Positions 3,443 to 26,700 of a DNA stretch of 64,000 nucleotides are shown piece after piece. Origin of the DNA: a virus. Lineage: Duplodnaviria > Caudoviricetes. A program made the position numbers and the translations under genes. Position 1 is the first letter of the stretch, and each line of letters starts with the position of its first letter. Below the pieces are notes generated by a model. That model did not search any database, was not told where the DNA came from, and worked only from the letters and a program-made list of their open reading frames with translations. Location: IMG/VR virus record IMGVR_UViG_3300030059_001404, positions 2,826 through 66,825 of that record; one strand, 5' to 3'.

Positions 3443-5047
3443 CTATTCGTTTAATCTTTTGTGAGTAATAACTGCATTAGTACTTAGTATCGTTGTAGCT
3501 ACAGACACTGCATTAATTAAAGCAGCTTTAGTTACCTTTAAAGGATCTATAACTCCGAGCTTATACATGTCACCATATGTTTCGTTTTTAACATCATAGC
3601 CATCATTGTCTTTTCTGTGTTCTAAAGTTTCTAATACTGTGTTATAATCTATTCCTGCATTAACAAGTATTTGTATTAATGGAGATTCTAATGCTTTAAT
3701 CATAATAGATAAAGCTACAAAATAGTTTTCATCATTACTTCTTTCCCCTTTTCTTTTTTGTGCTAATCTAAATAAAGCTATTCCTCCACCAGCTACTATT
3801 CCTTCTTGTAGTGCTGAACGTACTGCACATACTGAATCATCTACTCTGTCAAATTTTTCTTTTTGTTCTATATCACTATTACCTCCTACATAAATACATC
3901 CTATCGAACCTGCTAGACTAGCAATACGATCATTAATAAACTTTCTATCACCTAAGTGTGTAGTGTTTTCTTGTTGAAGTTTTAGTTGTTTGATTCTTTC
4001 TGAGATTTCTTCAGACATTTCTTCGTTCTTAATTATAACAGAACTTTCTTTTCCTATAATAATTTTGTCTGCATGTCCTAAATCTTCAGCTGTCATAAGA
4101 CTTAAATCATCTCCTGTTTTTTCTGAGAAGTATTTAGCTCCTATAGACAATGCAATATCCTGCATTAGCTCGTGAGTCTTGTATCCAAATGATGGCGGTA
4201 CAATGTTACAGAACTTTAATCCATTACGAACAACATTAGCTGCAAGCGTATTAACTACATTAGAATTACACTCTCCTATAATAAGAAGCTTCTCTCCTTT
4301 TTGTATAATTGGTTTTAGGATGTTTTCTATTTGTAGTATGTTGCTTATCTCCTGGTCACAAACTAATACCTTAACATCTTCTAATATACATTCGTCTTTC
4401 TTTTGGTTATTAATAAACAAAGGAGTAGTATATCCTCTATCAATCTTAATACCATTAGTTACTTCAGAATATGTAGACGCACTCATAGATTTCTCTACAG
4501 TTACTATTCCGTCAATACCCACCTTACTATAAGCGTCAGCAATAATATTTCCTAATACTTTGTCATTGTTAGCTGATATAGCTGCAACATCTTTTAATCT
4601 TGCTCCAGTTACTTTCTTACTGTTCTTCTTTAACAACGTAATGAATTTATCTGTAAGCTCGTTCATGTACTTTATAACTTCAGTTACATTGGTATCTTTA
4701 GTTATATACTCTTGACCTGCTAAAACTAAAGCTTCTGTTAATACAATAGCTGTTGTAGTTCCATCACCTGCTGAGGTTGCTGTTCTATTAGCTGCTTCTT
4801 GCATCATTTGTATTGCAAGGTTTTCTGCCGCATCTAATAAAGCTACTGATCTTGCAACGGTTACTCCATCTTTAGTTACTGTAATTCCGTTAGTGTGTGC
4901 TGGGGATTCTATTAAGACTGTTCGTCCTCGTGGCCCTAATGTTGATTTCACTGCTTTCGATATTGCAGTAATTCCGTTGATTAACTTTTGTCTTCCGTCC
5001 TGACCAAAGTCTAGGTTCTTAGGTATGTATCCTGATTCTGATTGCAT
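3443..5047 (-). CDS. groEL: Chaperonin GroEL (Cpn60), phage-encoded
   Basis: STLGPRGR, VTKDGVTVA, AGDGTTT, GIVAGGG and GVIDPLKVT motifs; no C-terminal GGM tail. Confidence 0.97.
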   Translation of the reverse strand: MQSESGYIPKNLDFGQDGRQKLINGITAISKAVKSTLGPRGRTVLIESPAHTNGITVTKDGVTVARSVALLDAAENLAIQMMQEAANRTATSAGDGTTTAIVLTEALVLAGQEYITKDTNVTEVIKYMNELTDKFITLLKKNSKKVTGARLKDVAAISANNDKVLGNIIADAYSKVGIDGIVTVEKSMSASTYSEVTNGIKIDRGYTTPLFINNQKKDECILEDVKVLVCDQEISNILQIENILKPIIQKGEKLLIIGECNSNVVNTLAANVVRNGLKFCNIVPPSFGYKTHELMQDIALSIGAKYFSEKTGDDLSLMTAEDLGHADKIIIGKESSVIIKNEEMSEEISERIKQLKLQQENTTHLGDRKFINDRIASLAGSIGCIYVGGNSDIEQKEKFDRVDDSVCAVRSALQEGIVAGGGIALFRLAQKRKGERSNDENYFVALSIMIKALESPLIQILVNAGIDYNTVLETLEHRKDNDGYDVKNETYGDMYKLGVIDPLKVTKAALINAVSVATTILSTNAVITHKRLNE

Positions 5048-5343: not shown

Positions 5344-5565
5344 TTAGAACAATTTACTTGTGTAGTTCTTTTTATATTCAGCACGCTCCATACCTTCAGC
5401 AATCTGATTTATCTTTCTCTCGTTAGCGTAAGCTCTCTTTAGCCTGGACATTCTCTCCAACCCTGATTCACCATCACGTCTGTTATTAATTAGTCTTCCG
5501 TTTTTTATAGTTAGTCCGTCCATAATTTTTTTTTGTAAAGGTAATAAAATTTTTTTAGACATCAC
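5344..5565 (-). CDS. Small basic hypothetical protein
   Basis: ORF track; first gene of the minus-strand arm. Confidence 0.7.
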   Translation of the reverse strand: MMSKKILLPLQKKIMDGLTIKNGRLINNRRDGESGLERMSRLKRAYANERKINQIAEGMERAEYKKNYTSKLF

Positions 5566-5951
5566 GAACCTGAGGGTTATTAGCCATTATACGTTGTCAT
5601 AGCTGTAAAACAAAGTCATATTTATTTGATTTGTTTAATTGAATCTCAAAAAACTTTCTGCAACTTTCTGACTTTTTATTTTAGGGGGGGTATCCCTAGG
5701 CTTCCCTATACGCACATAGCTGCGTTCTCCTAGCCCCAGAGTTCGTATCACATACAGACATCACGAGGTGCGAGATAGTACCCCTACGCCCATCTACTAG
5801 ATGAAACATTATACAGTGTAGCAGCCACTGTAAAGCAATTGATATAGAGAGTATTAAGTGTGTGACAATATGGCTGAACGATATGACAAATCAACATAGC
5901 AAGTTATACTAAAGTTTTACCTATTTAATGCTCAGGTTATATATAATAGTG

Positions 5952-5959
5952 TATATTTG
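5952..5959 (+). promoter_or_regulatory. Early promoter -7 element TATATTTG
   Basis: TAnnTTTG followed by CA, at the head of the + strand arm. Confidence 0.65.
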
Positions 5960-5968
5960 CATAGAATT

Positions 5969-6111
5969 CGTGAGTAGGTTGAGAGGAAATGGGGGCTACC
6001 CCTAGAACAACTACCCAGCGAGGGTAAACCTACTACGGACTTCAGAGCAACACAACCCAGTACATTGACATAACGAGTAACGCTGATATTGAGAGGGCAA
6101 CCTATACCTCA
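5969..6111 (+). ncRNA. Structured 5' leader / candidate small RNA
   Basis: Stem 5969-5980/6027-6037 encloses hairpins GGGG-GCTA-CCCC and TACCC-AGCGA-GGGTA; further hairpin AGG-GCAA-CCT; no long ORF. Confidence 0.4.
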
Positions 6112-6148
6112 TTAAAAACAAGATGAATGCAGTCAGCAATACTCCTCG

Positions 6149-6201
6149 GATAGTCCTAACCATATAGGTTAGCTGATGAGGATTTTGTATCCGAAACTAT
6201 C
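6149..6201 (+). ncRNA. Hammerhead ribozyme, type III (HH1); predicted cleavage 3' of C6155
   Basis: GATAGT-C | stem I CTAACC-ATATA-GGTTAG | CTGATGA | stem II GGAT-TTTGT-ATCC | GAA | ACTATC pairing with GATAGT. Confidence 0.93.
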
Positions 6202-6270
6202 AAATACTAGAGTAGAGGGTAAGTACAGACAGAAATTGATCAGGAGAAATTAATCAATAACAACAACAAG

Positions 6271-6525
6271 ATGAGAAAACCAAAAGCAGTGTATTTCAAA
6301 GAGAGATACGACAATGCGATAGAGAACAATCTATCGAGTAAGGCAGCATACTACAAGAGTAGATTGGTGCAGATGGGAGAATGGAGTGAGGTAAAGGATT
6401 TAAAGGATGGAGCGAGTGTAAAGGTTACAACGTGTGACATTAAAGGAGGTAGAGGTACTGGATTACAGAGACACGAGATGGACTTTGGTAAAGGAGGAGA
6501 GTCCTTTGTCTTCTATAGTATGTAA
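6271..6525 (+). CDS. Early hypothetical protein
   Basis: ORF track; A-rich leader ending AAG-ATG; lies between HH1 and HH2. Confidence 0.75.
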   Translation: MRKPKAVYFKERYDNAIENNLSSKAAYYKSRLVQMGEWSEVKDLKDGASVKVTTCDIKGGRGTGLQRHEMDFGKGGESFVFYSM

Positions 6526-6610
6526 GATTAGCTGATGAGGATTTAATATCCGAAACTAGAGTCGCAAACGCAATTGGCCATTGTAACAGTTTGAGGCTCT
6601 AGTCCTAATC
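6526..6610 (+). ncRNA. Hammerhead ribozyme, type I (HH2); predicted cleavage 3' of C6604
   Basis: GATTAG | CTGATGA | GGAT-TTAAT-ATCC | GAA | stem III ACTAGAGTC...GGCTCTAGT | C | CTAATC pairing with GATTAG. Confidence 0.93.
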
Positions 6611-6626
6611 AAAACAAATAAATAAG

Positions 6627-6929
6627 ATGATAACAATTAAGAAAAGCAGGGTATTTCATAATATGGTAACCCTAGAACTAACTGTAGAACAAGTACAGAT
6701 TATCGCACACAATCTAGACTTACAGATGTACGATGTACAAGACATCAATGATGGCCTAGAGGATGATGAAAAGTATGATACAGAATTAATAAAAGAATCG
6801 TGTACCGATATACTAGCAGAATGTCAAGCAATCGGAATTTGGGGAAACTTACCAATGCTTAACGAAGAAGTAATTGACACGACAAATGCAGATGAGTTAC
6901 TTGACAAACTAAATAATACTAATAAATAA
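6627..6929 (+). CDS. Acidic early hypothetical protein
   Basis: ORF track; 21 D/E vs 7 K/R by hand count. Confidence 0.75.
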   Translation: MITIKKSRVFHNMVTLELTVEQVQIIAHNLDLQMYDVQDINDGLEDDEKYDTELIKESCTDILAECQAIGIWGNLPMLNEEVIDTTNADELLDKLNNTNK

Positions 6930-6939
6930 AATATCAATT

Positions 6940-7350
6940 ATGAAAAAATCAAATGGAACGTGTGTTGCTAAAGAATCAGTAACACTTAAAAATTTCTTAT
7001 ACGAATATGTTAACATAAAAATTCAAGACAACTGGAGTGCTACTGCTGATTACTATATTCAATCAGAGGACTCTGCCTGTGGAAGTACTATGTATACATT
7101 AAAAGAGAGTGGAGTCGCACTAAATATATCAGAGAATGTATATCTAGATGACTACTCGCTTTACGATGCCTTATGGGAATTCTTTGAGGGACAAAACTAC
7201 ATTCTTAATGTAGAGACAGATACTATCATACAAATGGATGAGGACATCTTAGAAGCATTAGAAGAAATGTGGATGGATGATGGAGAATATAAAGAAAGAC
7301 TATGTGACCACTTTGACATAGAGTATGTAGAGTATGAAGATGAAGATTAA
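6940..7350 (+). CDS. Very acidic early protein (DNA-mimic candidate)
   Basis: 33 D/E vs 8 K/R in 136 aa by hand count; the DNA-mimic function is inference. Confidence 0.75.
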   Translation: MKKSNGTCVAKESVTLKNFLYEYVNIKIQDNWSATADYYIQSEDSACGSTMYTLKESGVALNISENVYLDDYSLYDALWEFFEGQNYILNVETDTIIQMDEDILEALEEMWMDDGEYKERLCDHFDIEYVEYEDED

Positions 7351-7398
7351 CTGAAGAGGATTCAATATCCGAAACTAGCAGAGATGCTAGTCTTAATC
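7345..7398 (+). ncRNA. Hammerhead ribozyme, type I (HH3); predicted cleavage 3' of C7392
   Basis: GATTAA | CTGAAGA | GGAT-TCAAT-ATCC | GAA | ACTAGCA-GAGA-TGCTAGT | C | TTAATC pairing with GATTAA. Confidence 0.93.
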
Positions 7399-7413
7399 AA
7401 AACATTATAAGAT

Positions 7414-7620
7414 ATGAATTTAGTACAACAATTGGTAGAAGGGCTACCAGTCTATTCTCAGAGCAACTCTGAAGGACTAGCAAAGCAAACTCAAGAGTTA
7501 ATAATGATTGACAAGTATGAGAACATACCTACAATCAAATGTCCAACTGAAATACAGAAGTCTTTAAAGTTCGTAGGATTTAAAGGATTGTCTGATTTCG
7601 TAACACAATATACAATATGA
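7414..7620 (+). CDS. Early hypothetical protein
   Basis: ORF track; starts 21 nt after the HH3 cleavage site. Confidence 0.7.
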   Translation: MNLVQQLVEGLPVYSQSNSEGLAKQTQELIMIDKYENIPTIKCPTEIQKSLKFVGFKGLSDFVTQYTI

Positions 7621-7895
7621 ATTTAGCAGAGTATTTAGAAGAATGTAAATTATTAATCACTAAAAAAACTACTATGACACCACAGAGTTATGTACACTAT
7701 TGGGACTTGTCAGATAATAACGTGCTAGAAATTAGCTATGACTTTTGGAAAGAACCAACCACACATCTTGATGAAGGTGGAGATTTTATTGAGATACATA
7801 AAATCATACTTAACGGAGATGATATGACAGATAAACTAGATGTTTTCTATGATGAGATAGAAGATGATATTAAAGAGAGAGGTAGTCACTTATGA
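7617..7895 (+). CDS. Acidic early hypothetical protein
   Basis: ATGA coupling with the upstream ORF; 22 D/E in 92 aa. Confidence 0.75.
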   Translation: MNLAEYLEECKLLITKKTTMTPQSYVHYWDLSDNNVLEISYDFWKEPTTHLDEGGDFIEIHKIILNGDDMTDKLDVFYDEIEDDIKERGSHL

Positions 7896-8008
7896 TTAAA
7901 GAACTAATCAAAGCCTTTAAAGAGAATCCAAGACAAACTATAGAAGACTTATTACTGCTACTCATTATAGCCTTTATCTTCTATGTAAGCATATGGATAT
8001 TCCATTAA
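7892..8008 (+). CDS. Small membrane protein (38 aa)
   Basis: Manual translation MIKELIKAFKENPRQTIEDLLLLLIIAFIFYVSIWIFH; ATGA coupling; C-terminal hydrophobic helix. Confidence 0.6.
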   Translation: MIKELIKAFKENPRQTIEDLLLLLIIAFIFYVSIWIFH

Positions 8009-8009
8009 C

Positions 8010-8060
8010 ACCACACCTCACTACTATAAAACGTAGTGGGGTTTTCGTGGTACTAACCAA
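8010..8060 (+). repeat. Repeated intergenic stem-loop element, copy A
   Basis: ACCAC-A-CCTCACTAC-TATAAAAC-GTAGTGGGG-TTTTC-GTGGT-ACTAACCAA. Confidence 0.8.
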
Positions 8061-8071
8061 TAAATAATATT

Positions 8072-8242
8072 ATGAATTTAACTACAGAACAAATAATAAG
8101 ATTATACTTATTTATGAGAACTGTTCCATCACAAGAAGATATCGAGCAATACTATATTAAGAATATCATGCCCTATGACTCTAAGCATTCAATTGCTGAA
8201 ATCTTAAGGTTTGGTAGAGAGAGAATGATAGTTTGGGATTAA
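8072..8242 (+). CDS. Hypothetical protein (56 aa)
   Basis: Manual translation MNLTTEQIIRLYLF...MIVWD; ATG directly after element A. Confidence 0.6.
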   Translation: MNLTTEQIIRLYLFMRTVPSQEDIEQYYIKNIMPYDSKHSIAEILRFGRERMIVWD

Positions 8243-8263
8243 TAATTAAAAAAAACAATAGAT

Positions 8264-8446
8264 ATGAGTTATATAGTAGAATTACGAGAGTACACTGATA
8301 GTGGAGATTACATAGAAAACGACTATGAGTTCGATACTAAGGCTGATGCAATGAAGTTTGCATATGATAACAAAGGGGATGTATATGCTATCTTAGAGTA
8401 TGAAGATGGTAAGAATTTCAACCCAAAACACTTAAACATTAATTAA
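8264..8446 (+). CDS. Small acidic hypothetical protein
   Basis: ORF track; 14 D/E in 60 aa. Confidence 0.7.
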   Translation: MSYIVELREYTDSGDYIENDYEFDTKADAMKFAYDNKGDVYAILEYEDGKNFNPKHLNIN

Positions 8447-8458
8447 AAATTAAATAAA

Positions 8459-8968
8459 ATGACAAGAAAAGAATTTATGACTAGAGTTACAGTAGTAAAC
8501 TTTAAAGAGAGCCGAGGCCACGATGCACCATCATTAGAATGGGATATAAAGTTTGACAATGTAAAAGTATGTAATTGCTGGGATGACTCGTATGGTGGAG
8601 AACTACAAGTCACTGATTACAAGAACCATAGAATAGACAATATATATAGTACTATTGATAAAGACTCTTTATGGGATGAGAAATACAAATGGACTACTCC
8701 TTTAGATATCTTATTAGAAGAGTGCTTAAACAATCACTTAGAGAAGAAAGACTATGACAAAGGCCTTATGATTAATGATATAGTCGGTAAAGGATATTCT
8801 CTACTAAGTTGGGGAAGTAAAAAAATACCAACCATCATTAAGAAATATGATAATGGGTTTGATATGATTCAAAACCTACTAACCAAGAATGTTTTGGAAG
8901 GAAGGGAGATTATAAACCTACAACATCTAAAAGATACATACGGATTTGTTGAAAATCACACTAGATAA
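8459..8968 (+). CDS. Hypothetical protein
   Basis: ORF track. Confidence 0.75.
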   Translation: MTRKEFMTRVTVVNFKESRGHDAPSLEWDIKFDNVKVCNCWDDSYGGELQVTDYKNHRIDNIYSTIDKDSLWDEKYKWTTPLDILLEECLNNHLEKKDYDKGLMINDIVGKGYSLLSWGSKKIPTIIKKYDNGFDMIQNLLTKNVLEGREIINLQHLKDTYGFVENHTR

Positions 8969-8986
8969 AGAAACTTGTTTTGATTC

Positions 8987-9035
8987 TACCATTACCTCAC
9001 TGCGAAAGTAGTGGGGTTTTGGTGGTACTAACCAA
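8987..9035 (+). repeat. Repeated intergenic stem-loop element, copy B
   Basis: TACCATTA-CCTCACTGC-GAAA-GTAGTGGGG-TTT-TGGTGGTA-CTAACCAA. Confidence 0.8.
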
Positions 9036-9048
9036 CACGTAAATTATT

Positions 9049-9813
9049 ATGAAGATATTAGAATTATTCAGTGGCTCACGTAGTATCGGCAAAGTAGCTG
9101 ATGCACGTGGTCATCAAGTATTCTCGGTTGACAACGTAGCTTATCCTAAGACAAATTGGGTAGGAGACATTTTAGACTGGGACTACAGACTTAACGAAAT
9201 GCAAGTAGGAGACTTAGATGAATTTTATGTTCCTGATGTAATATGGGCATCACCACCCTGTACTGATTTCTCAGTAGCTTGTATCGGCAGGAAGTGGGTA
9301 AGTGGCCACGAATTTAAGCCTAAGAATGCTGATATGCTAGGCATCAAGATTTTAGAGAAAACTATAGAGATTATTAAATTCTATCTTGAAAAGAATCCTC
9401 AGCTTAATTGGTACATAGAAAATCCTAGAGGCAAGATGCGTAAAGCACCACATTGGAACGAGATAGAGAACAGAAGAGAAACCATAACCTATTGTCAATA
9501 TGGAGATGAAAGAATGAAGCCTACAGACATATGGACTAATGATTTCGGATGGACTCCAAGAGTGATGTGCAAGAATGGAGATGATTGTCACGTATCAGCC
9601 CCACGTGGTAGTAGAACTGGAACACAGGGACTGAAAGACAATCACGAAAGGAGCAAGATACCAACTGACTTATGCAAAGTTATTATAGAGTCGGCTGAGG
9701 AAGAATACGGACTTAATTCTAACTATCCACAAGAATATACTTGTTGTGGAGATGAGGTTGTGGGTTGGATAGAGGATTACAGAATCTGTCCACAGTGCAA
9801 AGAACCCTTTTAA
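9049..9813 (+). CDS. DNA cytosine-C5 methyltransferase
   Basis: Motif I ILELFSG, motif IV WASPPC and motif VI IENPRG. Confidence 0.85.
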   Translation: MKILELFSGSRSIGKVADARGHQVFSVDNVAYPKTNWVGDILDWDYRLNEMQVGDLDEFYVPDVIWASPPCTDFSVACIGRKWVSGHEFKPKNADMLGIKILEKTIEIIKFYLEKNPQLNWYIENPRGKMRKAPHWNEIENRRETITYCQYGDERMKPTDIWTNDFGWTPRVMCKNGDDCHVSAPRGSRTGTQGLKDNHERSKIPTDLCKVIIESAEEEYGLNSNYPQEYTCCGDEVVGWIEDYRICPQCKEPF

Positions 9814-9821
9814 TTATTGTT

Positions 9822-9875
9822 GTTAGTACACGTGCCTCACTGCGAAAGTAGTGGGGATTTCGTGTTACTAACCAA
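9822..9875 (+). repeat. Repeated intergenic stem-loop element, copy C
   Basis: GTTAGT-ACACG-TG-CCTCACTGC-GAAA-GTAGTGGGG-ATTT-CGTGT-T-ACTAAC-CAA. Confidence 0.8.
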
Positions 9876-9885
9876 TACGTAAATT

Positions 9886-10065
9886 ATGAATGAAATTAAA
9901 TTAGGGAAAGAATTAATCTTTTCCAACGGAGCTAAGAGAACGATGTACTATGTATATCATCTTAGTGACAGTAGCACACTTAGATTCAAATCCGAGTCTG
10001 AGAGAAGTAAGTACATATCAGAAAATCAATTTATTATTAATCTAAAAACTAAAAATTATGCCTAA
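9886..10065 (+). CDS. Hypothetical protein (59 aa)
   Basis: Manual translation MNEIKLGKELIFSNG...KNYA; ATG after element C; overlaps the next start. Confidence 0.55.
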   Translation: MNEIKLGKELIFSNGAKRTMYYVYHLSDSSTLRFKSESERSKYISENQFIINLKTKNYA

Positions 10066-10870
10066 TCACGTTTATTGTTTCATCACTGTTTCATCTGATG
10101 AAGATTCGAAGATCCTAGAAAAAATGTCAAAAAATGAATACGGAATAGCAGGGTCACTTGTCCCAATGCCTGAAGATTTACACAATACTACTGCCCCAAA
10201 TAGAATAGTTACAGAAAAAGACAAAGAAATATCAGATGTACTAATAGATAAGTATAAATTTAACAATTGGTACGATTGGTCAATTCATAACTGGGGAACT
10301 AAATGGGGATGCTATGACAATGAGATGGATGGAGATGTACTAAGATTTACAACTGCTTGGTCAACGATGGATGAATCTCTAATTGAATTACTTGCTAAAA
10401 AAATTCCTAACTTTACTTATACTTGGGAAGAAGAAACAGGATGGGGAGGGTGGATGAACTTTGAAGATGGAGTCTGTGTTCAGCGAACTGAGTATGATGA
10501 GCCTGACTGGGCTGCTGATGATTTTAGATTCTATATAGACAAGAGTGGAAACATCAAAGTTTTTAGTTCTGATGAGATTGAGATGCAACCAATTGTTGAT
10601 GGTACTACTGTGACATATAAAGTGCCTACAGATACCTCTTTAAATTTATGGAAAGAGTATGCGACTGTTACTTATTTAGGTTCAGAACACACCACTGATG
10701 ATGGTACTTTTAAAGTAGGATACTATGAAGAGTATGACCTTCAATGCTTTTTAGGTAAGACTATTAAAGAGGCACTACAGTCCGTATCTGATAGTAGAGA
10801 GAACGACATCAACCATCAAGTTCCAAGAAATCAGACTGGGGACTTAAGAAACCAGATAATCTGGGGATAA
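10058..10870 (+). CDS. DUF1281/YubB ferredoxin-like domain protein
   Basis: MPNH...WYDWSIHNWGTKWG...FTTAWS pattern recalled for this family. Confidence 0.7.
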   Translation: MPNHVYCFITVSSDEDSKILEKMSKNEYGIAGSLVPMPEDLHNTTAPNRIVTEKDKEISDVLIDKYKFNNWYDWSIHNWGTKWGCYDNEMDGDVLRFTTAWSTMDESLIELLAKKIPNFTYTWEEETGWGGWMNFEDGVCVQRTEYDEPDWAADDFRFYIDKSGNIKVFSSDEIEMQPIVDGTTVTYKVPTDTSLNLWKEYATVTYLGSEHTTDDGTFKVGYYEEYDLQCFLGKTIKEALQSVSDSRENDINHQVPRNQTGDLRNQIIWG

Positions 10871-14319: not shown

Positions 14320-16710
14320 ATGAAAATAACCATATTTAAGGACATAAAATCCACTTCTCAGCCTTTTTATGTAGATGTCTCCATAATACTAACAAGGATA
14401 CAAGAAGGAAAATCAAAAGATTTAGTAAAAAAAATAAGACTAGAAAAAGACAAGTCAAAAAGAAATTTAATAAAGCAATCATTACCAGCAATTTGTTTTA
14501 GTGGGGAATTTACAAAAAGAAACGATAACTCTTTAAACCAGCATAGTGGGTTAATCTGTCTAGATTTTGATGGATATTCATCCAACAAAGAATTGCTTCA
14601 GGAAAAGGAAAGACTATGCAAGAGCAAGTACGCATACTCTGTGTTTGTCAGTCCTAGTGGAGAAGGCCTTAAGGCTTTAGTAAAGATTCCAAAAGATATT
14701 GCAAACCATAAAGGTTATTTCCTAGCGTTACAAAAGCATTACGACTCTCCTAATTTTGACAAGACATCAAAGAATGTTTCAAGAGTCTGCTACGAATCAT
14801 ATGACCCATTAATACATATAAACGAACTATCAAGTGTATGGGAAGAGGTAGAAGAGCAAGAGTATTCTGAAGTAAAAAAGTATGTAGATTTACCTACAAT
14901 TCCAATCACTGATGAGAATAAAATTGTAGAGATTCTACTCAAATGGTGGGAGAAAAAGTACGGAATGATAGATGGAGAGAGGAATAATAATGTCTACATC
15001 TTAGCAGCAGCATTTAATGACTTTGGTATAAATCAAACATTAGCTGAGTATATTATTAATAGATATGCTACAAAAGACTTTAATGAAGCTGAGGTTAAAA
15101 GAACAATACAATCAGCATATTCTCACAGACAGAATTTTGGTACAAAATATTACCAAGATGATGATAGGATAAACCAAGTTAAGGAGAAATTAAAACGTGG
15201 AGTATCAAAAAAAGAAATTAGATCTCAATTAGAAGAGTCCAATATTGAGGTCGGTATAGCTGACAATGTGATTAACAGACTTGAAGAAGAAGAAGCGAAT
15301 CACAAATTTTGGACTAAAAACGAGAAAGGATCTATAAAAATAGTACACATACTATTTAAAAACTTTTTAGAAGAGAATGGGTTCTATAAGTTTAATCCTG
15401 AGGGCAGTAAGAGTTATATATTTGTAAGAGTAACAAATAATTTGATTGATCACACATCAGAAAAAGAATTAAAAGATTTTATACTAAACTATTTACTGGG
15501 CGTAGATGACTATAGCGTATACAATTACTTTGCAGAACACACTAAATATTTTAGAGAGGAGTTCTTGACATTACTAGCATCTATAGATGTATACTTTATA
15601 GAAGACAACAAAGATACTGCTTACCTCTACTATAAAAATAGTGCAGTAAAGATTACTAAAGACAAAGTTATAATGATTGACTACTTAGATTTAGGAGGAT
15701 ATGTTTGGAAAGACCACGTGATTGATAGAACATTTAATTTATGTGAAATACAAGAGTGTGATTATAGAATTTTTATAACTAATATATGTGGAGGAGACAA
15801 GAGTCGTGTCAGTTCTATGAGGTCTACAATAGGATACCTACTACATGGGTGGAAGAATCTATCCTATAGCCCTGCTACTATCTTAAACGATGAGGTTATA
15901 TCACAGAACCCTGAGGGTGGTACAGGTAAAGGTCTTTTTATGAATGGCCTTTCACATATGAAGAAGTTAGTTGTTATAGATGGTAAATCATTTAACTTTG
16001 AGAAATCATTTGCTTATCAATTAGTATCAGCAGATACTCAGATTCTATGTTTTGATGATGTAAAAAAAGCTTTTGACTTTGAAAGATTGTTTTCTGTTGT
16101 GACTGAAGGGCTTACCCTTGAGAAAAAAAATAAGGACGCAATTAAGATACCATTTAGTAAATCTCCTAAGGTTGCTATTACTACTAATTATGCTATTAAT
16201 GGAGAGGGAACAAGTTTTGAACGTAGGAAGTGGGAGTTAGAACTTACTCAGCACTATACTAAAGACTTTACTCCATTGGTTGAGTTTGGAAGACTGATGT
16301 TTGGAGAATGGGATGATGATGAATGGTGTCAGTTTGATAACTATATGATTTCTAATTTGCAATTGTATTTAGAAAATGGGCTGCTAAAAAGTGCTTTTGT
16401 TAATCTTGCAATAAGAAAGCTAAGTGGAAGAACAAGTCACGACTTTATAGAGTGGTGTGGTATACTTAATAACACAGAGGGAGATAAGTTTTCAGTCGAC
16501 AAGAGAATGTATATGTCTGACTTATACTTGGATTTCACATCAGAGAACAATGTTCCTGCATATGGTAAGGATGCTATTTCTAGAAGCAAGTTTAATAAAT
16601 GGTTATTATCTTATGCTAGTTATAAGTCTCACTTAGAGCTTACAACTGCTAGAGATATGATAGGTAAGTGGATGTCATTAACTCCTAAAAAAATTGGGGA
16701 TGGAATTTAG
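14320..16710 (+). CDS. Primase-helicase (VirE/BT4734-like N-terminus, PriCT, SF3 helicase)
   Basis: LPAICFSG...GLICLDFD...SPSGEGLK; GERNN; Walker A GGTGKG; Walker B ILCFDD. Confidence 0.85.
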   Translation: MKITIFKDIKSTSQPFYVDVSIILTRIQEGKSKDLVKKIRLEKDKSKRNLIKQSLPAICFSGEFTKRNDNSLNQHSGLICLDFDGYSSNKELLQEKERLCKSKYAYSVFVSPSGEGLKALVKIPKDIANHKGYFLALQKHYDSPNFDKTSKNVSRVCYESYDPLIHINELSSVWEEVEEQEYSEVKKYVDLPTIPITDENKIVEILLKWWEKKYGMIDGERNNNVYILAAAFNDFGINQTLAEYIINRYATKDFNEAEVKRTIQSAYSHRQNFGTKYYQDDDRINQVKEKLKRGVSKKEIRSQLEESNIEVGIADNVINRLEEEEANHKFWTKNEKGSIKIVHILFKNFLEENGFYKFNPEGSKSYIFVRVTNNLIDHTSEKELKDFILNYLLGVDDYSVYNYFAEHTKYFREEFLTLLASIDVYFIEDNKDTAYLYYKNSAVKITKDKVIMIDYLDLGGYVWKDHVIDRTFNLCEIQECDYRIFITNICGGDKSRVSSMRSTIGYLLHGWKNLSYSPATILNDEVISQNPEGGTGKGLFMNGLSHMKKLVVIDGKSFNFEKSFAYQLVSADTQILCFDDVKKAFDFERLFSVVTEGLTLEKKNKDAIKIPFSKSPKVAITTNYAINGEGTSFERRKWELELTQHYTKDFTPLVEFGRLMFGEWDDDEWCQFDNYMISNLQLYLENGLLKSAFVNLAIRKLSGRTSHDFIEWCGILNNTEGDKFSVDKRMYMSDLYLDFTSENNVPAYGKDAISRSKFNKWLLSYASYKSHLELTTARDMIGKWMSLTPKKIGDGI

Positions 16711-20757: not shown

Positions 20758-23700
20758 CTAATTATTTTTCTTTTTAGATTTTCTATACTCAGCAGGACTC
20801 ATTGCTCGTTTAGGATTATTTTTCTTTTGAAATTCTCTATATTCAGCAGGACTCATTGATCCTGTGTCATTTTTGTTTTTCTTTTTTAGAAAGGCTTTAA
20901 CTTCATTAGGACTTAAACCTTCTGGAATTGCGTCTTCGTCTGCTTTATTAGCTTTGCTTATTATATATTCACTATAACCTAAATATCTCATCACTCTTTC
21001 TTCGTCAGTCATTGCACTTCCATCATTTAGTCTTAAAACGTGTTGTACTCCTTGCATCCCTTTAGATCCTGGTAACCCTCCTAAATCTAAACCTGTCCCT
21101 AAAAGTTGTAGTAAAGCTGCCTCTTTTAATGGCCCTGGCTTTAATCTTTCATACCTAGCATACTTTTTATTAAATTGAGAAGCTAACTCAAAAATAGGTA
21201 ATCCTTGACCAATATCTTCAGCATAAGCCTTATCTCCAATGTAAAAATCACTAACTCCTTTTACCAAGTCACCAACTATAAACATTGCTCCAATATTTCC
21301 TAAAGCTGCTGATCTAACTAAATCATTAATATCTTCATCATCTAAACCATCATCTTTCATAAGACCAGGAAGCCCCATTGCCATATACTGAAATGTAACT
21401 GGCATTACAGTGTAGTATAACATAAAGTTTCTTAAATTTTGCAAGAAAGATCCCTTACCTGTATCTCGTATTGTCTTATAAATTTCAACAGGACTCTTCC
21501 CTTGGAACATAGCTTTAAATCCAGCTCTTACTTTTCTACCCATTTGTATTTGAGAATACATAGATTTTCTCATATATTGTTTAGGTGTCGTTTTAAACAT
21601 ATTAAGATATCTTAAAGAAGAGTCACCCATTTGATAAATATCTTTATCTTGAATATCAGAGGACTGTTGTGTTTCTTTAGTTGATTTTTGAAACTTTTTT
21701 ATTGCTATATCAATAAGCTCTTGGTCTGTTGCATCTGGATTTGTTTTTTTAGCCTCAGCCTTATAATATAAATAAGTTGGAACTCCGCCCATAAATATTG
21801 CTCCAGCATCTCCAACTTTGGAGAAAAACATATTGAAATCCATTATAAACTGCATATATCCACCAGGCAATAATGTTGTTTCTTTAGTATTTGAATAAGC
21901 CTCTAAAGTATTTTGAAACCCTGCGCTATATCTGTCTTTCATATATGGAGAGTTAGCAAATATTTCTTTAGCTGCTCCTGCAAATCCTTGGCCAAACTTA
22001 CCAAAGGAAACACTGTTTGCAGTCATTAAACCTGCATATTTAAACCAATTTACAAATCCTATATCCCCTACATAAGTAAAAGTAGATAGTAATTGTTTGG
22101 CAGCAATGATTGGAGTTAATGCAATCCTTGTTGATATAAAAAAGTTATTAGCAACAGATATAAGTTTATTAGTCATTGAGCTGTTAATACCTCTAGCTGA
22201 TATTGTATTTACTATTTTATCAATTGTCTCATAGAAAAAATCTCCTTCTTTAGCTGTGATAGCTCCTTTTATTGTGGCGTTACCAAATGCTTTACTTATA
22301 TTGTTTATGTTTTCTCCATAGGCTGCAAACCAATCCATATCAGTTAAGTAAGTACTTAAAGCATTATTACCATTAGTAATCTGTATAGGGTTGTTATGTT
22401 GAACTCTGCTAAACATAGATGCGCTTTTAGTATCACCAGTTTTATAAATATTAGGATTTCCAATTAAACTTACCGCATCATTTTCTATGCCTTCTAAATA
22501 CAATCTTCCACCATAAGTATCATTCCAAGGTAAATCTATGTGGTAAATCTTTTTATATACTTCATTATATCTTTCATATAAAGAAGGATACATTTCGTTT
22601 ACTTGCCAGTCTGCATAAGCTTTTAGCTCAGGAGTCATAGACTCAGTAAGTTTTTGCATAATCCTAGCATGGTCTTTACCAAATAATGGGTTCATAGCAA
22701 AGTTAACATGATTACTTTCATCCTTATATTGATTATACAGATAATAAGTTTCAGCATCACTTAGGGTAAACTGATTTGCATATATAGCATTTCTTAAATC
22801 TTTCTTTGCTCTAAGTTTTTCAAATATTCCTGTAGCATTTTCTACTTCTTTTAATGCTAATTCAATTTCTTTTTGACTGGTATATATACTATTACCTTCA
22901 GCATCTAACCTTCCAATGTTACTAAAAAGTTTGTAGATTTCTTCGACCCCTGCTTTCTTCATCATTCTTCCTAGTCTAGTATCTGCTAGTTTTTTTCTAC
23001 CTGTTACTTCATTCATTTTTCTTAAAGCTTTTCTAGCTTGTTTTCTTTGAACAAAATTAGGTTTAGTAATTCCTAAAAACTTTTTAGTTACAAATAACTC
23101 AACAACTTTATCAAGAATTATTTTTTTGTTATCTTGTTGAAATTGTTTATAAGCATAACTTGACTCATTTATTTTTTCGTATACCAATTCTTGCATTACA
23201 CCTCCAAACAATTCTCCTGGTAAAACATCCAATTTCTCTACTAACAAAGCCAAACCAGAAGTAGAGTTTCTTAAATAACTTATACCTTTAGCTATAGCAG
23301 TATAAACTCTGCTAATTATAAAAAATCTTTTTTGTTTTCTTTCTGTTACTTTTTTAGCATCAGATATTGCTTTATTAGCCAGTTTTAAATTATCATTAAC
23401 AGATAGGTCTAATTTTTTTCCAGTTATAGCTTCATACATGGAATTTACAATATCCATGTGTTGTTGCTGTTGTTGTTTTAATTTTAACTTTAAAGCTGAT
23501 TCCCCACCTAAAAGCATTTCTTCTAAGCTTTCTAGAACAAGATTAAGCTGTCCAACTTTACTAGAATTGTTATTGTCCATTGCAAGAGCATTGTTAATTT
23601 GCATAGCTATTTGAATATCAGCCATTTCTGCTATTAACTTTTCTTGTGATTCAGGAGTAGTTTTTAATTCTTTCCCTAGCTTGTTGAGTTTTTCTTGTAA

Positions 23701-26700
23701 TGCAGCATTAGTATCTGTTACCTTTTCTTTTAACTCAGACAATTCTAATTTAGAGTTTTCATTTACTAAAGTATTATTTACAATGTTTTTAATTCTTGTA
23801 GAAATATCTCCTATTACTTTTAAAGCTTTTACAACACCACCTGACTTTCTTGTGTATTTTTTATTAAGAATACTTTCTATTTGTTTAAAAAGAAACTTAC
23901 TATTTATGGTGTTTATTTTTCTTGTAATTTCCTTTGTAATATCATTTATATCTCTCCCAGGTTTAGCTACATCTCTAATATCTTTTAATAAATTTTGTAC
24001 AGCAGCTGAATCAAATAAAGCGGCAGGTATAGTTTGTTTAACTAAATTTATTAATTGAGTTTGTGTGTAAAAAACTTCTTTTTTAGTTAATACAGGATTT
24101 CCTTTAAACTTTAAATTAAGTCTTGCTTTAGCTGCTTTTATTTTTTGATTAACATTTACTGTTGCTCTTGTAGCCAGGTTACTTAATAGTTGGTCTACTA
24201 ATAAAATTTGTAAATCAGACTGACCTTCTTTTTTTCCTATTGCATCAATATAAGTAGGGTCTGCTTGTAACACTTCAATTGCTAAATCTATTACCTCAGC
24301 TCTAGAAAGCTTAGGGTCTAATAAATCATTTTTTCTTGTTTGTTGTTGTTCAAACTTCAACATAGAATTATTAATTCTATTTAACTTATCTTGATGTGCT
24401 TTTTGTAAAGCAAATAGTTTCTTGTTAGCTCTTTGATCTATCTCAGTTGCACTAAGTGGTTTTTTTAAATTACTTAGTCTTGTTCTTTCTTTGCTTACCT
24501 CTGCTTCTATTTCTACATTAGTTTTTAAATTAGCTTGTTTAACATAAGCTGCTCTTCTATCTTCAGCATTTATAGCTAATTCTTTAGTAGACTTTCTTTT
24601 ATTAGGTTTAGAGTTCTCTATATTCTTCTTTTTAACAAAATCAACAACTTTATTATATAGTTTTGCTCCCTTCTTGTCTCCTAGAACTTTAAATGAAGAT
24701 GGAACTTCAGAACTAATATCTGCATAAAAATCAGCATTTTCTAAAGCAGAAGCTATATCTCCTTTTTTAAAACCTTCAGCATCTAAAGCTATTTTAATTG
24801 CTGCGTCAGAAATCTTATTTTTTCTAGCGTCAATAATAATATCAACAGCTTTATCACTGTCAATTATTTGATATCTAGCTCTAGGATTAAAAAACTTAGG
24901 CTTACCTTGTTTATTTAAACCCTTAGTAAAGTAATAACCAGAAATTTCTCCTCTTCTATAACCCTCTCTAATTTTAGCCTCTGCAATTCCTAATCCAAAT
25001 TCTTTAGCTTGTCTTCTAAGTAATCCTAAGTTGTAAATGTTTGCTGGCATAAACCCACGAGGATTTACATTATAATCATCTATCAACCTATCCAAGCTTA
25101 TTTGATCTCTATCTTGTATTTCTGTAACATTATCTGTATTCAAAGTCACGACTGTTGATGCTGTTCCAAAAGATGGAAACACCGATTTCTCTCTTGACGA
25201 TTCTATTGTTTGTGAAGTTTGTGGGTCTATTGTAACATCTGTCCAACTAACTCTATCTGTAAGTAAATTAACAGTAGCTTTATTTCCTTTGGTTTTAGCT
25301 TTTATACCATAAGCATAAGACTCATGCTGGTCTGTTTTAACAGATTCTACTTGCCCATCAATTTCTAAAATAGCATATATTTCTCCAGTTTTTCTTTTAC
25401 CTTTATTTACACCGCTTTCAACTACATCGTCTTTTAAAACAGGTTCAGTTAACATTTCAGATAAAGCTTGCGTCATATTTGCTGGACTAATACTTAGCTT
25501 ACCTGTTTTGGATTTACCTTTAAAATATTTGTTTTGTATGCCTTCGCTAAATATTTTTCCAAATTGTTCAATGGCTTCTGGACTATTGTTTATTTCGTCA
25601 GAAATATTTTTAATTACATTTGAAACAAATGCTTTTCTTTTTTTGAAACTTATAAAATTATCTTGTTCATCAGGGTTTAAATTTTGAGTTTTTTCGGTAG
25701 TTCCTAGCTTTATTTTTATTTCACTTAAATTACTTTCATAAGTATTATCAAACTCTAAGTTTGTCCCTAATTGTGTGTTAGCAGCTTCAACTACAATATT
25801 TTGTGTAGACTCTTTTCCTAATTTTAAAGTTGTGTTTTCTGACATATAATTAAATATGTCTATTACACCATTTGCCATAGTTGTGCTAGACAATAATTTA
25901 TCAGCTGGTGCAGAAGTTAGTGCCATTAAAACTTTCCCTCCATTAGCTATACTTGCTTCATTTAAGAGCTTAACCATAAGGTCAGCACCCTGCTTACTTC
26001 CTGCCCAAAAACTTCCGTCCTCGTGAAATTTAATTGTATAAAAAACACCTCCCTTTCCTTCTACTAAAACATTTCCTTTTTTATCTAATATAAATCCAGA
26101 ATAAGCTCCATCTGGTTGATGCAATAAAACAGACTGTTTATTAAAATCTTTTATACTTTTTTCCCTATTAATAAATTTATCTTTTTCTAAAATAGCAAAT
26201 TTTCCACTATTAACATCGTAAGAAAATGTCATTCCAGAAACAGGGTCGCTATAATCATTCTGAAACCTATCATTCATTTCTTCTACACTATCTTTTTGGT
26301 CACCCTTTTTAGGAGTTTTAGCTTTAGGTTTCTTTTTAGGTTTTATTTTTACGTCAGCTTTATCGGAAACTTTCTTTTTAGCTTTCTTTTTAGCTTTAGG
26401 TTTCTTTTTAGGTTTCTTTTTAGGCTTTAATTTATTTATAGCATCTTGTTCCGCTTGTAGTTCATTTAATAAACTCATATCACCCTTTTGCATAACTGAA
26501 CCAGATCCAATTTTTCCTGCCATAGCATTTAAAAAAGAAACTACTTTTCTGTCTGTGCTAGTAAGTTCATTTACATATTTACCTAGGCCTATACCTTTCA
26601 TTATTTTATCTAAAAACCTTCTTACTATTCCTTTTTGTTTTATATCTAACCTGCCAAAATTTCCTGCTAGAGTTCCTATAAGTTCGGTGATTTTTTCTTC

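Follow-up and report, generated by a model that had tools for sequence, protein, structure and literature searches.

Three hammerheads at the head of a gene block

The DNA considered here is a stretch of 64,000 nucleotides (nt), referred to below as the window, from IMG/VR virus record IMGVR_UViG_3300030059_001404 (positions 2,826 to 66,825). The source genome, a single contig of 66.8 kb, is that of a marine podophage of about 67 kb with a GroEL gene. Within 1.25 kb of the plus strand, this window carries three hammerhead ribozyme motifs (HH1, HH2, and HH3), which lie on the same strand as the surrounding genes and bracket first one open reading frame (ORF) and then two. The array opens a plus-strand block, presumably the early one, in which small ORFs are followed by replication genes and which diverges from the minus-strand block that contains GroEL. 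Between HH1 and HH2 is an ORF of 84 amino acids (aa) (6271 to 6525, plus strand). Between the predicted HH2 and HH3 cuts are two ORFs of 100 aa (6627 to 6929) and 136 aa (6940 to 7350), which together occupy plus-strand positions 6627 to 7350 and encode acidic proteins. ORFs of 68 and 92 aa, with overlapping stop and start, lie 3' of the HH3 cut (7414 to 7895, plus strand). None of the ORFs between the hammerheads has a family match, as judged against PHROG and Pfam.

The original prediction, made without database searches, was of three complete hammerheads with all of their stems, and the sequence, a descriptor scan, and minimum free energy (MFE) folds bear it out. To match the descriptor, a sequence needed CUGANGA, GAAA, and a UH dinucleotide for cleavage, together with a closed stem II (3 bp or longer), a stem I (4 bp or longer), and a stem III (3 bp or longer); stems I and III could be arranged as in type I or as in type III. 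Applied to both strands of the window, it found exactly three matches, all on the plus strand, compared with a mean of 0.02 per window and a maximum of 1 in 100 composition-preserving shuffles. The MFE structure (RNAfold) is the three-way hammerhead junction for each of them. As defined by Perreault et al. (2011, PMC3088659), a hammerhead has the core residues C3 U4 G5 A6 N7 G8 A9 and G12 A13 A14, the pair A15.1-U16.1, H at position 17, and no mispair adjacent to the core. All three elements hold CUGA(U/A)GA, GAAA, and GUC in register, with N7 being U, U, and A in HH1, HH2, and HH3, as predicted. Stems I, II, and III measure 6, 4, and 5 bp in HH1, 6, 4, and 8 bp in HH2, and 6, 4, and 6 bp in HH3. 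No pair next to the core is mismatched: 1.1-2.1 is C-G, C-G, and U-A in HH1, HH2, and HH3, respectively, and 10.1-11.1 is G-C throughout.

HH2 (6526 to 6610, plus strand) is a type I hammerhead recognized by the descriptor, the MFE fold, and R1, the class-specific covariance model described below. Its stem I (6526 to 6531 with 6605 to 6610) encloses the core (6532 to 6538), stem II (6539 to 6542 with 6548 to 6551), GAAA (6552 to 6555), and a long stem III hairpin (6556 to 6602), and the GUC ends at C6604, after which the cut is predicted. HH3 (7345 to 7398, plus strand), found by the same three means, is also type I. It is built from stem I (7345 to 7350 with 7393 to 7398), the core CUGAAGA (7351 to 7357), stem II (7358 to 7361 with 7367 to 7370), GAAA (7371 to 7374), and stem III (7375 to 7380 with 7385 to 7390), with the GUC ending at the predicted cleavage position, C7392. 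Both begin at the stop codon of the preceding gene, as had been noted: TAA 6523 to 6525 directly abuts HH2, and TAA 7348 to 7350 lies inside the 5' strand of HH3 stem I. The predicted cuts fall 22 nt before ATG 6627 and 21 nt before ATG 7414, again in agreement with the prediction. The compensatory differences that it listed in stem I, G-C against A-U both between HH2 and HH3 and between HH1 and HH2, are correct.

What the prediction overlooked is the type of HH1 (6149 to 6201, plus strand; descriptor and MFE fold): it is type III, a circular permutation with respect to HH2 and HH3, which are type I. Stem III (6149 to 6153 with 6197 to 6201) is the open one, while stem I (6156 to 6161 with 6167 to 6172, loop AUAUA) and stem II (6180 to 6183 with 6189 to 6192) are capped. 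U16.1 is at 6154 and C17 at 6155 in a GUC site, followed after stem I by the core CUGAUGA (6173 to 6179) and, after stem II, by GAAA (6193 to 6196). The cut predicted after C6155 is 115 nt, not about 21, upstream of ATG 6271, and the body of the ribozyme would be left as the 5' end of the mRNA that follows.

A compact class in marine phages

Are such elements found elsewhere? A pattern made up of the core, stem II (GGAU-N5-AUCC), and GAAAC matches at least 115 IMG/VR phage stretches. Because this pattern specifies neither stem I nor stem III, it provides an unbiased test of both: they are complete, with a UH site, in 116 of 122 unique matches, compared with 3 of 122 when the flanks are shuffled. 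The descriptor recognizes 253 hammerheads among the pattern matches listed, 245 of them type I, in same-strand arrays of 1 to 13 per locus. The class consensus runs A, GNYUAA, CUGAUGA, GGAU, UNAAU, AUCC, GAAA, C...stem III...GUC, UUANNC, AA. With few exceptions, stem I is exactly 6 bp long, and the unpaired A residues on its two sides are conserved (96% and 92% in the class alignment), and U1 and U5 of loop II are each kept in more than 92%. All three window hammerheads retain these residues, and HH2 and HH3 agree with the consensus at each conserved position, flanking A residues and loop II included. Fast cleavage at cellular Mg2+ needs a tertiary contact between stems I and II, for which the conserved A residues and loop II U1/U5 are candidates. 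Mutual information between loop II and the flanks reveals one convincing co-change only, from U-A to C-G.

The placement of these hammerheads is equally regular. Among 246 in the pattern-derived loci, just 6 lie inside a same-strand ORF, and in 78% the predicted cut precedes the next ORF that starts with ATG by 15 to 40 nt. About 69% have the upstream stop codon no more than 10 nt from where the ribozyme starts or inside stem I, the consensus of which ends in UAA. HH2 and HH3 are typical in this respect. The same features (stop in stem I, flanking A residues, a cut 15 to 40 nt before the ATG, and an A-rich leader) could also mark the compact module as a translation device, in which the cut would free a 5'-hydroxyl end near each start codon. 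We consider this doubtful. If true, hosts with weak or absent Shine-Dalgarno use (Bacteroidota) would require such a free 5' end near the start to initiate efficiently on internal cistrons, and the second hairpin motif described below would be an undescribed RNA element with an equivalent role at junctions, either a new ribozyme or a nuclease site.

Some arrays are far denser than that of the window: loci L038 (IMGVR_UViG_3300030382_001968), L065, and L095 have 9 to 13 class hammerheads on one strand over about 7 to 9 kb. A separate type III subclass is interspersed in type I arrays at L112, L114, L150, L037, L065, L074, and L089, sometimes at the head of the array (L037, L074). Its stem I is 7 bp, with a loop like GUGUG, UGAGUG, or UGUGU, and its stem II is 4 bp, with a loop resembling CAAAAG or AAAA.

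Relatives anchored on GroEL

A second, independent set of 80 loci was retrieved via GroEL homology alone and not via the ribozyme. These were searched with R1, a covariance model trained on 26 length-matched type I sequences of the class. Within the window, R1 scores HH3, a member of its training set, at 73.9 bits and HH2, which was outside that set, at 60.8 bits (E value of 4e-20). It matches the core alone of HH1 (26.5 bits), as expected for a permuted copy, and finds nothing in the window beyond the three hammerheads. Among the GroEL loci, R1 finds 61 matches in 34 of the 80. All 61 are upstream of GroEL and on the opposite strand, that is, on the divergent early-gene strand. In the alignment of this set, 98.9% of cells are paired, compared with 58% in shuffles and 23 to 47% in slid controls. 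Changes on both sides are seen in 15 of 17 base pairs, and the only two pairs without a compensatory change, G10.1-C11.1 and A15.1-U16.1, are the most conserved two of the hammerhead consensus. The closest relatives by GroEL identity are L118 (85%) and L119 and L120 (both 78%), and L118 and L119 retain a hammerhead at the junction after gene 1, with stem sequences that differ. Motif, folds, covariation, strand, and junction placement are matters of observation. Because of the covariation, the strand bias, and the conservation at the same junctions in relatives, the comparison strongly supports the window elements as real hammerhead ribozymes under selection, and this part of the original interpretation stands.

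Do cultured phages carry them? The cultured relatives of the window's portal protein come from hosts that are all Flavobacteriaceae (Flavobacterium, Cellulophaga, Tenacibaculum, and Maribacter). The top GenBank match is the uncultured podovirus MW202828.1, at 69% identity. R1 has no match in Cellulophaga phages phi38:1 and phi13:2, Tenacibaculum phage Gundel_1, or Maribacter phage Panino. In Flavobacterium phage elemoF_6-3D, a single copy (NC_055853.1, 16045 to 16102), its stem II mispaired at two positions, lies beneath the annotation of a small opposite-strand ORF. This hammerhead-like element sits between two minus-strand genes, and the 35-aa "hypothetical protein" gp66 (16030 to 16137; L206:2031-2138), annotated exactly over it on the opposite strand, is probably a spurious gene call. 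Methylophilales phage MEP301, from a marine OM43-clade host, has one canonical copy (702 to 753 of MW452941.1) that overlaps the end of gp02 and would cut 27 nt before gp03. The compact class therefore extends beyond Bacteroidota phages. MEP301, with its canonical copy, and elemoF, with an imperfect one, are cultured carriers.

HH1 as a permuted copy

How did a type III hammerhead come to stand at the head of this array? In L118, L119, and L120, the first junction holds a type I hammerhead. In the window, the sequence after the GAAACUAUC of HH1 is homologous to the stem III of these relatives (CUAUCAC/GUGAUAG) and its loop. The alignment with L118 also reveals a vestigial leader in the window (6249 to 6270, plus strand), consisting of A 6249 and then TTAATC and an A-rich stretch (6250 to 6270) before ATG 6271, which aligns with the cleavage-site side of the L118 hammerhead. 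With its UUAAUC 21 nt before the ATG, it resembles the leaders that HH2 and HH3 would leave after cleavage. At the HH1 site itself, the downstream substrate strand has been lost, and the upstream GAUAGUC is followed instead by a capped stem I. Because the relatives have a homologous type I copy and the vestigial leader is retained, the most natural reading of HH1 is that a type I ancestor in this position was permuted to type III. HH1 preserves the flanking A residues, now the first and last bases of loop I, as well as loop II U1/U5, and it is unlike the other type III hammerheads in arrays, which form the different subclass described above. A type I to type III permutation would thus be documented at one orthologous site between close relatives.

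Proposed processing of the early transcript

What might three such ribozymes accomplish? The most plausible reading is that they split the first early transcript, much as RNase III does in T7, a reading based on the regular placement of class members, on their bias to one strand, and on precedents in the literature. We give a probability of roughly 0.7 to constitutive, co-transcriptional self-cleavage that divides the transcript into a leader and messages of one or two genes. A long transcript would start in the divergent promoter region, near 5966, and each ribozyme would fold and cut itself by internal transesterification as it is made. The pieces would be (i) a leader of about 190 nt, (ii) a 449-nt RNA with HH1, the 84-aa gene, and HH2, (iii) a 788-nt RNA with the 100- and 136-aa genes and HH3, and (iv) the remainder of the transcript. 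HH2 and HH3, being type I, would stay attached to the upstream message, whose 3' end they would cap as a folded structure terminating in a 2',3'-cyclic phosphate. Since a type I hammerhead is cleaved at its own 3' end, the upstream cistron would keep its stop codon and gain a folded 3' end. The downstream message would begin with a 5'-hydroxyl, and its leader of 21 to 22 nt would consist of the 6-nt strand of stem I and then a short A-rich stretch. The type III HH1 would remove the 5' leader and remain as the structured 5' end of the mRNA. The likely benefit would be to uncouple the stability and translation of neighboring cistrons, as at the T7 early RNase III sites.

In the T7 early region, RNase III cuts the long early transcript between cistrons, leaving a structured 3' end on the upstream piece. 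T7 sites are protein-dependent double-stranded RNA hairpins, whereas each window element is a three-way junction built around a hammerhead core, and the likeness is functional only; in MFE folds, the window elements do not form the long, irregular double-stranded hairpin of an RNase III site. Another parallel comes from RiboJ-type synthetic insulators, in which the type III sTRSV hammerhead is placed in the 5' untranslated region. HH1 is likewise a type III hammerhead in a 5' untranslated region that would remove the upstream leader and stay on the 5' end of the mRNA, but it is natural and an insulating effect is only presumed.

Natural precedents exist as well. Clustered hammerheads flanking single prophage genes have been reported, with mRNA processing as their proposed role; three tandem arrangements cleave within transcripts of about 2 kb in vitro, and one does so in vivo (Perreault et al. 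2011, PMC3088659). The description of phage hammerheads as isolated examples, which formed part of the original prediction, is therefore wrong, and the novelty claimed for the processing idea fails, the same hypothesis having been published in 2011 (PMC3088659). Like those clusters (e.g., the triple hammerhead around ardA in Agrobacterium tumefaciens), the window array consists of canonical intergenic hammerheads, close together on one strand, that bracket one or two small phage genes, and the arrays of its relatives do the same. It differs in its setting, the early/replication genes of a marine podophage of lytic type that is uncultured, and in mixing one type III with two type I hammerheads of a compact subclass (a 6-bp stem I with flanking A residues, a 4-bp stem II, and loop UNAAU). 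In the HHphage elements of haloviruses HF1 and HF2, as in the window array, the hammerhead stands upstream of the first ORF of a polycistronic early transcript, at a distance of a few nucleotides, and in HF2 a mapped 5' end of that transcript is no more than 3 nucleotides from the cleavage site (PMC3088659). HHphage is one ribozyme on its own, its core has an atypical insertion, and its virus is archaeal, whereas the window has three canonical cores. The window array accordingly adds a clean example to a known kind of system, the concept dating from 2011. What is new is the compact and very common marine-phage type I subclass, which Rfam thresholds miss, the type I to type III permutation at an orthologous site, and, downstream, another conserved hairpin motif in place of the hammerheads. 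The biological role of bacterial and phage hammerheads was still described as largely elusive in a 2019 review (PMC6765202), and a small, clean, testable array is relevant to that question.

Could the pieces be rejoined? Type I products carry matching ends, 2',3'-cyclic phosphate with 5'-hydroxyl, which the hammerhead itself or an RtcB-type ligase might join into circular or spliced RNAs, an idea raised by Perreault et al. (PMC3088659). The stem I sequences of HH2 and HH3 are nearly the same, and 47% of adjacent array members share theirs. Set against this, if CUAAUC, with which the HH2 product begins at its 5' end, pairs with the HH3 stem I strand (GAUUAA), an A-C mismatch arises next to the core, which is disqualifying by the 2011 criteria, and in the MFE fold the stem I hairpin of HH1 sequesters the 5' end of that ribozyme's product. 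Circular or spliced products were sought by Perreault et al., and none were found (PMC3088659). With the core-adjacent mismatch in particular, we judge circularization or splicing to be very improbable.

Several points weigh against the splitting of the transcript. The hammerheads are accessory, or dispensable, in this phage group: R1 finds none in 46 of the 80 GroEL-anchored loci (some with short flanks), and MW202828.1, the closest GenBank genome, has none by the descriptor, by a loose core search, or by R1. Cleavage in vivo and any benefit from it we infer, as we do the promoter and, because of this, the co-transcription of all three hammerheads. Loop II of HH1 (UUUGU) departs from the class UNAAU at two middle positions, and HH1 has no Rfam hit, type III models included, even in a 71-nt scan; because of this atypical loop and the lack of a type III match, its activity and speed at cellular Mg2+ are the least certain of the three. 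Finally, Rfam 15 at gathering thresholds reports no hammerhead in the whole window.

How much should this last result count? At E values up to 10 over 2 kb, Rfam still gives nothing hammerhead-like. Its hammerhead models are short, and sub-threshold alignments appeared only in short scans of about 75 to 100 nt. There, HH3 aligns end to end with all 45 positions of Hammerhead_1 (RF00163) at 14.9 bits, against a gathering score of 34. HH2 reaches 11.6 bits with the same model and 14.2 bits with the hammerhead part of RAGATH-1-hammerhead (RF03152), both below gathering. Across Hammerhead_1, Hammerhead_3 (RF00008), and RAGATH-1-hammerhead, HH2 and HH3 align with scores far below gathering, the best being 11.6 to 14.9 bits against gathering scores of 34 to 56. 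Because only such short scans reveal these alignments, the lack of Rfam matches is no evidence against the motifs, and annotation pipelines based on Rfam would overlook all three.

The patchy presence within one phage group bears on another explanation, in which the ribozymes are active and their importance is mainly evolutionary. The segment of about 25 nt comprising the core, stem II, and GAAAC, together with a repeated stem I, would act as a portable recombination junction for early-gene cassettes, and mRNA cutting would be a tolerated side effect. The flanked genes are indeed unconserved, PHROG and Pfam giving no match and IMG/VR yielding no relative for the 136-aa protein, while the junction ribozymes recur in relatives, and HH1 looks recombinant or permuted. 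Stem I 6-mers are identical in 35% of pairs within arrays compared with 7% between arrays, a 5-fold difference. Stem III, however, is similarly enriched (identical in 10% within arrays compared with 1.6% between, or 6-fold), which fits plain duplication ancestry; that ancestry being enough, we rejected stem I identity within arrays as a special signal. Moreover, covariation in all three stems, the invariant catalytic core, and the strict strand bias indicate selection on the RNA fold and not just on a DNA repeat, and the fixed spacing to the next ATG suggests a role in expression. We therefore regard recombination junctions as an unlikely main function.

The doubt about HH1 raises the further question of whether the elements are conditional or decaying. 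The cut might be made slowly, or be under the control of Mg2+ or of a ribosome stationed on the overlapping stop codon; alternatively, HH1 might be inactive. The array could then serve as a decay timer for early mRNA. The 5' strand of stem I overlaps or abuts the stop, so that a terminating ribosome must melt the ribozyme; in 57 of 229 class members, the overlap is 5 to 10 nt. The atypical loop II of HH1 and the mispaired stem II of the elemoF copy point the same way, and regulated cleavage has been suggested for slower phage variants (PMC3088659). On the other hand, HH2 and HH3 match the class consensus at all conserved positions, and nothing in the sequence suggests a ligand-binding domain. 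This explanation appears distinctly unlikely. Rejoining, recombination junctions, and conditional cutting are all less well supported than co-transcriptional cleavage.

Data from RNA touch on the array only lightly. Three runs labeled as RNA each have two to three short contigs on positions 5500 to 10500, and contigs cannot show RNA ends. One 159-nt contig (7324 to 7482) spans HH3 uncut; two runs of one sample share it, RNA being only a guess for one of these runs, DNA carry-over is possible, and contigs show neither ends nor the absence of cleavage.

Leader, downstream junctions, and genomic setting

Upstream of the array, TATATTTG (5952 to 5959, plus strand) is a plausible Bacteroidota-type -7 promoter element for the plus-strand early/replication block. 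It was identified by sequence, and its position is partly conserved in the alignment with L118 and L119. A scan with the sigma-70 consensus showed no enrichment. The putative leader that would run from the presumed start near 5966 to 6155 (plus strand, about 190 nt) and be freed by the HH1 cut with a 2',3'-cyclic phosphate end has no long ORF on the plus strand. Its predicted fold (-46.6 kcal/mol, z = -1.7) is unexceptional, and it matches no Rfam family. The G+C content of this leader is relatively high for the genome, and it is poorly conserved in the alignment with L118 and L119. A 50-aa ORF on the minus strand (6011 to 6163) overlaps both the leader and HH1 (in its 5' part) and is probably not a gene.

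Farther along the operon, in both the window and L118, a second intergenic motif succeeds the hammerheads at the next three junctions. The window copies, on the plus strand, are at 8000 to 8071, 8979 to 9046, and 9819 to 9886, each ending 10 to 13 nt before an ATG, and the L118 copies, on the minus strand, are at 564 to 635 and 2220 to 2291. Other relatives have minus-strand copies at L127:3540-3608, L129:4673-4740, L131:2858-2926 and 3590-3658, L133:2926-2993, L139:731-798, L162:1312-1379, and L173:3218-3285. All copies are on the early-gene strand. The motif comprises an invariant CCUCACU...AGUGGGG hairpin, N-UUU, and then 4 to 6 nt that pair with the segment just 5' of the hairpin. This outer helix covaries (CCAC/GUGG, ACACG/CGUGU, CCUAG/CUAGG, CCACC/GGUGG, and CUGCG/CGUAG) and is followed by an invariant UA. 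A narrow Rfam scan matched it to no ribozyme family and found a terminator-like tail only. Candidate identities are an attenuator, a nuclease site, a protein-binding hairpin, or a promoter at the DNA level; for the last of these, CCTCACTA resembles the core of T3/T7-class promoters.

With respect to the phage as a whole, a blastn search of the 2-kb hammerhead region against GenBank phages gave no match. Besides GroEL and the portal, the window encodes a primase-helicase, a helicase, a methyltransferase, and structural proteins. The phage DNA is near-complete, with at least 94% of sampled words present, in 17 metagenome runs from marine, sponge, and sediment samples. In the structural block, an ORF of 2913 aa occupies positions 20758 to 29499 of the minus strand, and the homologous region of MW202828.1 has a protein of 3859 aa.

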